The position numbers and the translations under genes were made by a program. Of a DNA stretch of 64,000 nt, positions 4,718 to 58,146 are shown piece by piece (within the stretch, counting starts at the first letter, position 1; each line of letters begins with the position of its first letter). Origin of the DNA: Eledone cirrhosa (lineage: Eukaryota); NCBI GenBank assembly GCA_964016885.1, contig OZ024745.1, positions 26,412,001 to 26,476,000 of the forward strand, in the 5' to 3' direction. Below the pieces are notes generated by a model that worked only from the letters and a program-made list of their open reading frames with translations, was not told the origin of the DNA and did no database searches.

Positions 4718-4855
4718 TTAAAATAAAAGATTAAAGTTTAAGCAAAGAATCGCTAATCTATTATTTTAATAAATATTTGGTCTACAGTTTTTATATATTT
4801 ATATATATATATTATCCTTTTCGGATTTTAGACTTCACATTTAGTATTAATACTA
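4718..4855. mobile_element. Family A fragment with internal inversion, inside (TA)n
   Basis: 'ttaaaataaaagattaaagtttaagcaaagaatcgct' in one orientation is joined to 'aatctattattttaataaa...ggattttagacttcac' in the opposite orientation. Confidence 0.7.
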
Positions 4856-5369
4856 TATATATATATATATATATATATATATATATATATATATATATAT
4901 ATATATATATATATATATATATATACAAGCATTCATACACACATTTACATAAACATTATATGTCTGCACACACAGACATATAATCATAAGTATATATAAA
5001 TATATGTATATATGTATCTGTGTGTGTGCGTATGAATCAGAAATATGTAAATATATATATATATATATGTGCCTGTGTGTACTAATATCCAGTTATATAT
5101 CTGAAGATATTCTTATGTAACGTGTTTACGGTGGCTAATGCTATCTGTAAATAGAGAGATTATATCAGGTGGCCGAGATGGGTTTTGTGAGATGAATGGT
5201 GATTGATGAGTGATGAAACATTGGCAATATGAAGTGACACACCTACACAAACACTAGCTTAGAGATAGTATTATAGTTGATACTAAATGGACCCCATTGA
5301 CAAATTTAGCAACGATAAAACTTAACTATTTCTACTATGTTTGTGTTCGTGAAACCAATGTTATCGTAC

Positions 5370-5560
5370 GTGGATTGGCAGTATCGGTAGAGGGTCGGAC
5401 GCCATGCTTTGGCGCATAGAGTTACGCCCCTTGCCATTCTGAGTTCAAATCGCGCCAAGGTTAAACTTTGCCTTTCGTCCTTACGGGGTCGATAAAATAA
5501 AGTACCAGTAATGTACTGGGTAATTGCTAGGTTATTCTGCCAAAAGTAGAAACAATTATT
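5370..5560 (+). mobile_element. tRNA-derived SINE
   Basis: Full head, body and tail match to the other copies. Confidence 0.9.
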
Positions 5561-8199
5561 AGAAAAACATTTCTATACACACACGCACACATACGCGTGC
5601 ATATACATATATATGTATACATATACACACACACACACACACACACATATATATATATACACATATATATATATACATAGATTTATATATATATATATAC
5701 ATATATATATATATATATATATATATATATATATATATATGTATATATATATATATAAATCTATGTATATATATATATGTGTGTGTGTGTGTGTATTATA
5801 TGTATATATATATATGTATATTTATGTGTATATATATAATATTTATATATATAAAAATTATATATATGAATATGTATATATATAGATAATATATTATATG
5901 CATGTATATGTATATATATAATTATATATCGTATATGCATATATATATATGTATATCTATCTATCTATCTATCTCTCTCTCTCTCTATATATATATATAT
6001 ATATGTTTGTGTGTATGTGTGTGCGCGTGCGTGTGCGTGTGTGTGTGTGTGTGTATGGGTGTGGGTGTACATATTTACTCATATAAAGACACACACACAC
6101 ATATAAGTATATATGAGATATAAAACACTAAGCCCTTTGCCCTTTCCGTGTTTATACAAGCTGAATATATGTAGAAATCTGTACAGCTCGCAACTAATTA
6201 ATCTCTGTCAACGCACACAGAGATACGTACACACTCAGATTCACTCACAGTCACAAAAACAAATCCATGCTTTCCAATATGTATACACTTATATACATAA
6301 TTATATGATCATACACAAACAACAAGGACAAAGACCTCATTGTGACAGATTGAAAAAAAAAATGTTCTCATTGCGTAGATTATAGCGTGATTACAGAATT
6401 TCATAGATTTTAATATATATATATATATATATATATATATATATATATATAATTTCATACATATATGGATATCTCTCCTCCCCTCTTTCTATATACATAT
6501 ATAACATATATATATATAACATACATATATATATATAAGTGTATGTGTGTGCGTGTGTGTGTGTGTGTGTGTGTGCGTGTCTGTGTGTGTGTGGATGCGT
6601 GTCTGTATATATATATGTGTGTATATATATATATATATATATATATATATATATATACGTTTAATTTATCAAAACTTTCACGTTAAATTCGTGGTTTCGC
6701 TCTCCCTAACTCTCGGAAATGTCATTATATGTTAGTTTTGTTATTGATGCTACAACAGATATTGTTTACTAACGGTATTCTAGCATTCTTGTTATTCTTG
6801 TTATTACTATTGTTACTTTAGTGATGATGATGATTATATTGGTGATGGGAGTGGTGATGATGGTGATGTTGATGCCAACGATGATAGTAATGATGAACAT
6901 GATTATTATGACAAAGTCAAGGACGCTGGTTAAGATCATCTTACTCTTTACCTTCTCCATGATAGTTTTCCTTATTTCTCCTACCCATAGTTACCAAAAC
7001 CCTCTAAATTATATTACATTCCAAAGACACCACAATCTGGCTTGCTCACACCAAATCTTACATTTGTAAAGTGATAATAGCGTCTGTAAAGAGAGGAAAT
7101 AGCACAATATAGAAACTTCACTCTTATTCTATGGATTTTCCGCATAACATAATCCCTGAGAGATATAACTTACGAAACATATTTGGCAAATTCACTTAAT
7201 TACTGGAAATAAAAAGTTTATGAATAGCTGAAGATTAAAGATCGCATCTGAAGTTATTGATTTGAGAGATAGAAGGTAACCATACATTTTCATCAAGCCT
7301 ATACTATTATTATTGCATATGTTTATTATTGGTAATCCTTTAGCTCCACGCTTGTTTCTAAGTTTATTTTGAATTTTTGGTTCTATTTGTATCAGAAATT
7401 GATTACAGACAATTGAATTGATCAAAACTAGATAATGTCATAACCATATCTTGTGACACCAAGAGATTATTGAACGCAACACCTGACAACAGAATGATTC
7501 TAAAATGATCTGACATTTAGGAAAAGAACTTGAATGGGGGATGCACACAAAGAAAAACGAAAGAATATTTTTTTTCTTTTATGCATTATATCAGATTGCA
7601 GCTGGGAAAAGCTGCAATAGCAAGAAAGAGAACAGAGAGTTAAGAAAGATATAAATTGAGATTAATGATATGTTTATGTGGGAATGACAATGAAAATAAC
7701 GTTTAAAGAAAATCATGAGAAAGTGAAATTGTCTTGATTTCATCAGATAATGATAATTCATATCCACCCAATGTGACATTCATTTGAACCCCGGAATTAT
7801 TTCTTTTTATGTTTATATCGTTGATGTTGCACTTTTTTTGTCTACTTAAAGCTTTTATTTTCTTTTCGCATTAAGTTGTTTTTTTTAACAAATATGTTTT
7901 TCCACTGCAGACAAACTAGGTCAAAATTAGTCTAAAAATATGTTTTATTTTAACATTATGTAATAATTTGATTATTTATTTATTTAAAGCCTAGAAAACA
8001 AGGCGTCTATAAAAATAGTCTGAGTATTGTGCAACATATAATGGAGAAATCCTTTCTTCGTAGAAGGGAAAGGTTTATATGCAAAACAAAACAAGTGGTG
8101 GACGTAGTTGTTTCGTCTTAAATGATTATTGTTGTTTAGACTTAAATGATTGAGTAGAAATATGATGAAAAACATTCCATTCTCCACCATATATTTTTC

Positions 8200-55833: not shown

Positions 55834-56544
55834 ATATATATATATATATATATATATATATATATGAAATCAGGGAGAAAAAGACGATTATTAGTAAGAA
55901 AAAATATTTGTTTCCCCTTTTTATTTATTTCTCTCTTTTTTTTCTTCCTAATAATCGTCTTTTTCTCCCTGTTTTCATATATATCCTGACTCGTCTGCTC
56001 CCTCTACACATTTTATTATTATATATATATTTTTTTCATTATTATATATATTTTTTTTCTTCTGAAAACGGCGGGTAGTGAAGACGTATGAATCTTTTTC
56101 TTACTATGATATTTTGTAATATGTTTTACATAGATCAATAATTGAATGAACATACAGGGAACTATCCCCCAGAAACGATCGTAAAATAATGAGTTTTACT
56201 ATGAATTAACAGTTTTGTGTTTAATTTCATTGTTTTAAGATTTATATATATATATATATATATATATATATATATATATATATATATATATATATATATA
56301 TATATATATATGGGTGAGTTGTTGTTTAACAGATTCTGTTCAGACGAAATATTTGATATTTCAAAACATTGTTTGTGTCCACCTGATTAACCTTTTTTAA
56401 AAGTAAAATATGTAACTTAGTCATCAGATGAATTGAAATCTGCAAACGTACTTAAGTGAGTTACGCAATTACATTGATACCTTTGACTAAATACATCCGA
56501 TGGGGGTGCTGAGAGTTAGGTGCACCTCACAGGATTTAGTGATA

Positions 56545-56712
56545 ATATAATTGTCTCCACTTTTGGCACAAGGCCATCAATTATCCCAGTGCATTACTGG
56601 TACTTTATTTTATCGACCACGTAAGGATGAAAGGCAAAGTTAACCTCGGCGGGATTTGAACTCTATGCGTCAAAGCATGGCGACTGTCCCTCTACCGATA
56701 CTGCCAAATGGT
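56545..56712 (-). mobile_element. tRNA-derived SINE with a deletion in the head
   Basis: Reverse-complement match to the family. Confidence 0.85.
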
Positions 56713-57799
56713 GAATCATCGGGGGTGCAACCATCCTCACTAGCTTCACCCTCACGTAAATTACTTGTGATATTTTGAATGCATCTCCGGAGAGATATCT
56801 ATAAAACTGCATATATATATATATATATATATATATATATATATATATATATATATATATATACATATATATATATATATATATATATTATATATATATA
56901 TATATATATATATATATATATATATATATATATATATATATATATATATATATATATATATATATATATATATATATATATATATATATATATATACATA
57001 TATATATATATATATATTATATATATATATATATATATATATATATATATATATATATATATATATATATATATATATATATATATATATATATTATATA
57101 TATATATATATATATATATATATATATATATATATATATATATACATATATATATATACATATATATATATATATATGTGTGTGTGTGTGTGGATACATA
57201 TATATATATATATATATATATATATATAGATATAGATATATATATATATATATATATATATATATATAATATATATATATATATATATATATATATATAT
57301 ATATATATATATATATATATATATATATATATATATATATATATATATATATATCTAAGTCCAAAATTAAGATAAATGAATTAAATGAATTTAATCTAAA
57401 TCGAAATCGTGGGTGTCATGACATAATGCATGCGCCATATATCCTGAGAGTTTAAGCTCAAAGATAAATAAATCTGACCATATTATAATAACTAGAGATT
57501 GATTAACATATAAATATACATGAATAATCACAGGAGATAATTTAAGCTTGCGTGTAACCGCGCATAGCTAGTTTAGGCAATATTTACCTTTAAGAGTGAT
57601 TAACCTTCCTTGTATATATCCCATTAAAGAAATATATTTCACCAATTAATCAGATGGTAAGTCACGGAAAGTGGATATTATTGGATTGTCAACAAGGAAA
57701 GGGATAATATATATTTTATATAAAAAATACGGTGAAAGCTTCTATTTTCTAATTTCAAACTTGCTTGCTGTTTCAAAACATACTTACTTGATATATATA

Positions 57800-58146
57800 T
57801 ACACACACACACACACACACACACACACACACACACACACACACACACACACACACACACACACACACACAGACACATACACACACACATATATATATAT
57901 ATATATATATATATATATATATAGTAATAATAATAAAATTGAAGACTAAAAGAAGCAGCGATTCTTTGCTTAAACTTTAATATATATACACACACACACA
58001 GACACATACACACACACACACACACATATATATATATATATATATATATATATATATATATATATATATATAGTAATAATAATAAAATTGAAGACTAAAA
58101 GAAGCAGCGATTCTTTGCTTAAACTTTAATCTGTTATTTTAATAAA
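57800..58146. repeat. Tandem duplication of [(CA)n-gacacatac-(CA)n-(TA)n-inverted family A stub]
   Basis: gtaataataataaaattgaagactaaaagaagcagcgattctttgcttaaactttaat at 57924 and 58073. Confidence 0.85.

Follow-up and report, generated by a model that had tools for sequence, protein, structure and literature searches.

Near-strict pairing of two fixed ends in insertions of a putative Hydra-type Penelope-like element of Eledone cirrhosa

Penelope-like elements (PLEs) are the sister group of telomerase. Here we analyzed a 64,000-nt stretch of Eledone cirrhosa DNA (contig OZ024745.1, positions 26,412,001 to 26,476,000; hereafter the window), part of a 3.0-Gb genome, for copies of a repeat termed family A, which is assigned below, by motifs and layout, to the 3' end of a Hydra-type PLE. 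Copies of family A with two arms in head-to-head orientation were found to have arms that end at two different fixed sites, A and B, in nearly all cases in which both outer ends were defined. How the inverted repeats and one-sided tails of PLEs are formed has been named an open question (PMC8557442). Published work is cited throughout for those sections of each source that were covered.

The Hydra clade is defined by PLEs with a C-terminal endonuclease (EN+) that are generally <3 kb (PMC8557442). Its members (e.g., Hydra-1_Obim and Hydra-2_Amil) share with family A one open reading frame (ORF) in which reverse transcriptase (RT) is followed by GIY-YIG, the DKT, CxCX5C, CxxC and CxH motifs, the absence of CCHH and the (TA)n target, as well as partial tandems, an inverted 5'-truncated copy and a tail that is often at one end only (PMC8557442). 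Family A differs from the clade in a tail of 90 nt compared to 30-40 nt, and may differ in its 3.25-kb unit and in the non-canonical core of its ribozyme-like motif. The sections of PMC8557442 covered attribute the tail to resolution by the endonuclease and give no counts on a pairing rule. Penelope of Adineta vaga likewise has inverted pseudo-long terminal repeats (pLTRs), an optional one-sided tail and a head-to-head layout (PMC3846280). Published accounts already describe an inverted copy, a tail on one side and the targeting of TA (PMC8557442, PMC3846280).

Two further systems bear on how such insertions may arise. In vitro, the Poseidon PLE of Anolis (PAc) cuts and extends both target strands, with two RNA start sites that bound the tail and a predicted dimer; the start site is not set by target homology, and starts occur on pLTR-ORF junction RNA (PMC11167929). 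The PAc start sites are inside the ORF, whereas both sites of family A are upstream of the ATG, and the sections covered draw no link to inverted insertions and report no per-insertion pairing. L1 twin or dual priming resembles what is proposed here for family A in that both strands would prime complementary DNA (cDNA), the inverted arms have their 3' ends outward and the junctions display microhomology; L1, however, has a poly(A) start, a variable second site and a deletion between the arms, whereas family A has two fixed, interchangeable sites and frequent overlap (PMC2837659). The literature covered, which does not extend to most subscription papers and some supplements, contained no statement of strict pairing, of arms from a shared donor or of twin priming in PLEs, and the sections covered of PMC9977147 and bioRxiv 10.64898/2026.07.22.740005 added nothing on pairing.

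Outer ends, inner junctions and shared variants

Positions in family A are given as u, the coordinate in a real full-length copy of 3,250 nt (L217), in which the ATG is at u44, site B at u3160 and site A at u3250. Copies in the window were confirmed by self-comparison and local alignment. By this approach, five short copies were found to have the layout described in an initial annotation of the window, with an inverted arm head to head and both outer ends in (TA)n. These copies represent four independent two-armed events and not the five that had been claimed, since the stubs at 57924 and 58073 share the same inner junction and are one event duplicated locally in tandem (period 149 bp); the long minus-strand copy, formerly ended at 52931, was found to reach 53045 (Table 1). 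The two fixed 3' ends pointing outward recur genome-wide and cannot be put down to chance: exact junctions with (TA)n numbered 12,937 for B and 12,643 for A, compared to 0 for reversed control patterns, and 169 of 190 A or B ends entered TA.

Insertions were parsed in the window, in 100 stretches of 10 kb taken without selection and in 100 loci that were each anchored on a single exact junction, either of A or of B. The anchored loci are all on C1 (60 cut by searches and 40 picked from lists), duplicates were removed and at least one A or B end was required; pairing counts rest on these samples. The 134 parsed insertions included 58 A-B, 1 B-B, 0 A-A, 11 two-armed with one undefined outer end, 54 with one arm and, at the edges of loci, a further 10 with one arm. 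Thus, pairing was A-B in 58 of the 59 cases where both ends were defined (P about 1e-16), 3 of the 58 being called by an arm <18 nt. When inward-facing pairs were collected by junction coordinates alone in the first 48.7 Mb of C1, at loci that overlap the parsed set and are not independent of it, 30 of 32 were A-B; of the two exceptions, the A-A pair was two adjacent insertions and the B-B pair was real (L281). The long arm of 20 long copies was carried by either site. Six other families of the window, each with two sites of its own, gave 51 A-B, 2 A-A and 1 B-B pairs, plus 13 pairs with an undefined end; these families are putatively PLE-like, a label given on their layout and ribozyme-like motifs.

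The annotation had held inversion to be the usual outcome, an expectation not borne out by 1 Mb of unselected DNA, in which 10 of 26 copies were two-armed (15 of 33 with the window, ~40-45%). Inversion is common but not the majority outcome, and the many one-armed copies indicate that second priming is not obligatory or that its product is often lost.

Inner junctions were variable, as anticipated, when breakpoints of the sampled copies were mapped, with outer ends fixed. Among 67 inner junctions, 60 were distinct; microhomology of at least 2 nt was detected in 27 (null 16%, P 2e-6) and of at least 4 nt in 8 (null 2%), and the remainder were blunt or had 1 nt (16) or carried extra bases (24). 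The microhomology reported at ~10785 is present, though as 5 nt of exact match inside the 8-9-nt near match that had been noted. The inner junction of this copy (at 10740) has 75 exact genome matches (<1% of B ends), and no variant was common to more than 7 of the 30 copies examined out of the 75. The lack of a common private variant fits a microhomology hot spot and not a master copy, and recurrence is expected at this junction because its microhomology is the longest.

In 45 simple A-B insertions, the A arm was found to halt inside the tail in 22 and to pass B, such that the arms overlap, in 23; the B arm extended further upstream in 34. Arm lengths were not correlated (rho 0.14, P 0.36, n = 45). 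In both arms the 3' end is fixed and the 5' end varies, which is what cDNAs of a sense RNA would show. The L1-type geometry put forward in the annotation is not what these arms display, in view of the overlap and of the long arm at either site.

Shared variants were examined in 29 insertions with arms overlapping by at least 60 nt, with the expectation derived from other insertions. Non-majority bases common to both arms numbered 76 compared to 13 expected, or 44 compared to 10.6 without the largest case (L039; Wilcoxon P 1e-4). Of the 29 insertions, 18 were above expectation and 5 below, and arms differed by 2.8% within an insertion compared to 4.6% between insertions. These data point to arms derived from one donor, which is in line with the earlier proposal of a common template, if not strictly one molecule.

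Arm 5' ends were concentrated at u3085-3097, which held 34 of 135 compared to 1 and 2 in the two bins just upstream. A G preceded 11 of 16 arm ends at u3089 (window 591) compared to 15 of 93 elsewhere, and a non-T base before u3089 was detected in 2,606 matches genome-wide compared to 495 at a control site. Both arms ended at u3089 in two insertions (L192 and L246). The sequence context of u3089, TTAGTT, is initiator-like, and an untemplated G is a mark of copying through an RNA cap. Window position 591 is likely the start of a capped RNA.

Identity of family A and nature of its outer sites

The relation to Penelope supposed in the initial annotation is supported by motifs, layout and the (TA)n target, which place family A as the probable 3' end of a Hydra-type PLE. 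ORF pieces of 546-606 aa in real copies fit a single ORF with RT followed by a C-terminal GIY-YIG. In the Atlas clusters nearest to the protein, HTH_animal is present, RVT_1 is found in 40-78% of the members of some clusters and GIY-YIG in 23-31%; the 546-aa piece matched no family in Pfam. The protein has SDKTGN (DKT instead of DKG), RWR in place of RWK (copy L214), CNCRNRVDC as the CxCX5C linker, a single C within the GIY-YIG core, and CDLC and CKH as CxxC and CxH around conserved E and N. Likeness of the RT to the Hydra set was judged by eye against the alignment in the PMC8557442 supplement, and the family A motifs were not matched in the supplement text examined. By the definitions in PMC8557442, family A does not fit the Neptune clade, as neither a CX2-5CxxC linker nor CCHH is present. 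Partial tandems (pLTR), an inverted 5' copy and a one-sided tail, the insertion layout of EN+ PLEs, were all observed, from the tandem read-through at A described below and the layouts of the 20 long copies. Family A thus appears to be a new Hydra-type family with a known layout.

In tandem copies, the sequence passes through A into the 5' untranslated region (UTR) and ORF, and this read-through has 448 exact genome matches; A and B are, therefore, both internal sites of the RNA. An internal deletion from ~u2236-2269 to u2981-2993 is common to several copies (L006/L035, L009/L036, L026, L161, L171, L179 and L201) and may reflect recurrent jumping of the template, splicing of an intron or a subfamily that carries the deletion.

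A hammerhead-like motif was read by eye at window 575-650, with a core of CAGAAGA compared to CUGAnGA (A at core position 4). Rfam detected no hammerhead in window 1-1000, giving 2 chance-level matches only, and the predicted minimum-energy fold at 575-650 is without a hammerhead-like structure. Ribozyme cleavage was rejected as the origin of arm ends, of which only 1 of 135 is at the predicted cleavage site. Canonical cores were read by eye in the families at 37373 and 53791. A tail segment (702-710) is near-complementary to the stem-II loop region of the family A motif (604-613); this complementarity is the microhomology found at the recurrent junction of 10740 and may, in addition, represent an RNA pairing.

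Past either site, A or B, the element runs on with TAT, of which all 3 nt match the target, and all B sites examined continue with 1-5 nt matching TA. The annotation had proposed that (TA)n pairing chooses AU-rich sites of the RNA. Two tail tracts of 7-8 alternating T/A, however, gave at most 40 and 82 junction-like matches, which are upper bounds, as slippage makes some too. Since these better-matching tracts are barely used, complementarity to (TA)n helps but does not select the sites. A stem of the form RCYY...GRGY, in a G-C version in some families and an A-U version in others, was found 5-8 nt downstream of 6 of the 8 sites, namely A and B of family A and B of 4 of the 6 other families, compared to 1-5% of shuffles. 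Read-through at site A was not detected for the other families in the loci examined, and their hairpin test covers B only. Likeness in primary sequence between the 20 nt after A and after B was weak (top 6 of 6,410 windows, with 123 of 20,000 shuffles as good) and was set aside; the hairpin is the better description of the sites. In the PMC8557442 supplement, a record without a displayed header, directly ahead of Hydra-1_Obim, has a hairpin resembling these close to its 3' end.

In contigs of four sequencing runs, loose ends in TA were found at both A and B, together with joints between opposite strands, the best run possibly being the assembly's own sample. At several ends (L288, L290, L291, L295 and L170 for site A; L239, L292 and L096 for site B), the last few template bases are repeated before (TA)n, which looks like RT slipping and re-priming and has microsatellite slippage as a plain alternative.

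A model of paired priming and its alternatives

For the two-armed copies, we consider it fairly probable that one complex cuts both (TA)n strands and starts one cDNA each at A and B of the same RNA. The fixed ends, A-B pairing, junction statistics, shared variants and 5' stop on which this model builds are direct observations. We infer the further steps as follows. A dimer would bind both of the small bulged hairpins, which lie 5-6 nt downstream of their respective start sites, and the target 3' ends would each pair with just 3 nt, UAU. Both cDNAs would head toward the 5' end of the RNA, the A-started one displacing the B-started one where they overlap, and the two cDNA ends would be joined via 2-5-nt matches or by end joining. 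Priming on the front pLTR copy of the capped transcript (start at window 591) would give stubs of at most 72 + 162 nt, and priming on the downstream pLTR copy would give long or full-length arms. Such a one-complex, two-start model would agree with the PAc in vitro study.

Several observations weigh against this model. The insertion at L281 852-4247, the only clear B-B case found, has an arm of near full length, and the six other families add 3 homotypic pairs. Away from locus edges, 54 of 134 insertions are one-armed, and only ~40-45% of unselected copies have two arms. The overlap in 23 of 45 simple cases, with the A arm beyond the end of the B arm in 8, needs displacement or a second RNA, and 24 of 67 junctions have extra bases instead of microhomology. 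The shared variants can come from two RNAs of one donor, from donors of the same age or from later conversion between arms. Among the G's at u3089, 5 of 11 are readable as belonging to the other arm, and in the first 100 non-T matches the G share was 53 at u3089 compared to 41 at the control site (hand count). The hairpin pattern was drawn up after the sequences had been inspected, and 2 of 8 sites do not fit it. For PAc in vitro, the strands are alike in start site, and per-molecule pairing is not reported in the sections covered (PMC11167929).

Dual priming on two RNAs, in which an asymmetric protein pair would hold a pair of transcripts from one donor, one set at A and the other at B, each serving one target strand, is unlikely though not remote. 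A 'dual priming' by two mRNAs has been proposed for L1 (PMC2837659); applied here, it would explain overlapping arms and the cases with both arms at the RNA 5' end (L192 and L246) without strand displacement, and the shared variants would follow if one donor dominates. An extra rule would, however, be needed against A-A and B-B, an exclusion that one RNA with two sites gives for free, and the A arms that halt in the tail (22/45) are as expected with the B complex on the same RNA.

Self-priming, in which a cDNA from A folds at a palindrome and copies itself up to B, has been proposed for the inverted structures of PLEs, including Adineta vaga Penelope (PMC3846280), and would give shared variants; arms end within 4 nt of each other in 6 of 45 simple junctions. 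Fold-back requires, however, a B arm nested in the A arm and cannot yield B arms longer than A arms, as seen in 34 of 45 insertions (e.g., L012 and L038), nor A arms that stop short of B (22/45), and the cases with symmetric arms are concentrated at the shared 5' stop. Fold-back of a single cDNA is, therefore, excluded as the main route and is improbable overall.

Twin priming of the L1 type, by which the second strand would anneal to the AU-rich RNA stretch that best matches (TA)n, has in its favor the 1-5-nt TA match with which all examined B sites run on, a gap between arms in 22 of 45 and the microhomology at junctions. We regard it as quite improbable, in view of the best TA tracts having at most 40 and 82 matches compared to ~12,900 (B) and ~12,600 (A). 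Family A also has no poly(A) primer and no variable second site, A and B swap roles, and non-overlap with a deletion between arms is confined to those 22 insertions, with overlap in the other 23. A target-site duplication flanking the two arms, as in L1, would be masked by (TA)n.

Independent head-to-head insertions into one TA tract, or rearrangement after insertion, are very improbable: TA tracts are hit repeatedly and adjacent insertions do occur (L239/L240 and L316), but A-A, A-B and B-B pairs would then approach 1:2:1 compared to the 0:58:1 observed, TA between the arms is mostly absent at junctions and the arms share variants. Least probable of all is a non-autonomous master stub like a miniature inverted-repeat transposable element (MITE) copied as a unit, for which the 75 matches of the 10740 junction might speak, as it is contradicted by the diversity of inner junctions and the difference between the two ends, and the recurrence, without a variant in more than 7 of 30 copies, is expected from the length of that microhomology.

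Features of the window and significance

Coordinates of the family A copies and sites and of the other PLE-like families are collected in Table 1. The family A copy at 10-752 is interrupted by an unrelated dispersed repeat of ~180 nt (259-441), which was also found at about ten other places (4011, 5370, 8733, 12676, 18658, 19412, 29864, 38266, 56547 and 60369). The window further includes a 10-kb tandem array with a period of 13/26/52 nt (41128-51400) and a 661-bp direct repeat of 93% identity (62234-62894 and 63374-63998).

Table 1. Positions of family A copies and sites, and of other putative PLE-like families, in the window.
Feature	Position	Strand	Remarks
5'-truncated copy with a single arm, u2704-3250, that ends at site A in (TA)n	10-752	+	Unrelated repeat inserted at ~259-441
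Hammerhead-like motif, read by eye	575-650	+	Non-canonical core
u3089, sharp 5' stop of arms	591	+	Extra G often before; probable capped RNA start
Site B, fixed outer end	660-662	+	Element runs on with TAT into tail
Tail between B and A, 90 nt	663-752	+
Bulged hairpin GCTC...GAGC, 5 nt past B	668-713	+	Second hairpin 6 nt past A in tandem copies; pattern defined after looking
Site A, fixed outer end	751-752	+	TAT into 5' UTR and ORF in tandem copies
Two-armed stub, inverted B arm u3120-3163 + A arm u3141-3250	4711-4854		~20-nt overlap, 1-nt junction match
Two-armed stub, inverted A arm u3201-3250 + B arm u3107/9-3163	10739-10840		5-nt exact microhomology
One-armed copy, u2586-3250, ending at site A	52529-53045	-
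Two-armed stub, inverted B arm from u3093 + A arm from u3220	55013-55110		2-nt microhomology
Two-armed stub, A arm from u3222 + B arm from u3116, the B arm cut short	57923-57981		One extra G at junction; tandem duplicate of 58072-58149
Two-armed stub, inverted A arm from u3222 + B arm from u3116	58072-58149		One extra G at junction
Second PLE-like family, tail ~80 nt	17463-17711, 35360-35551, 38884-39148, 55612-55865, 60570-60889		31/33 defined pairs A-B in sequences examined
PLE-like family, inverted arm and one-sided tail	10169-10393, 52288-52461		Tails ~65-110 nt in this and the next four families
PLE-like family, inverted arm and one-sided tail	9317-9755
PLE-like family, inverted arm and one-sided tail	37373-37588
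PLE-like family, inverted arm and one-sided tail	53791-54115
PLE-like family, inverted arm and one-sided tail	54455-54880

Taken together, the two-armed insertions of family A are a real feature with a known layout, for which we propose a testable mechanism that was not found in print in the literature covered. Whether PLEs integrate in general by programmed double priming, in which one complex would use two hairpins of one transcript to make one cDNA per target strand, without ordinary second-strand synthesis from the target, is a proposition that we hold to be evenly balanced. If true, it would account for the tail, its one-sidedness, the pLTR in inverted orientation and the great abundance of tiny stubs in at least seven families. 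The near-strict A-B pairing, shared arm variants and 5' stop would lead from the description of a shape to a mechanism whose sharp predictions can be tested in the PAc system, and the model would explain why the TA microsatellites of this genome hold small, lopsided palindromes by the tens of thousands.

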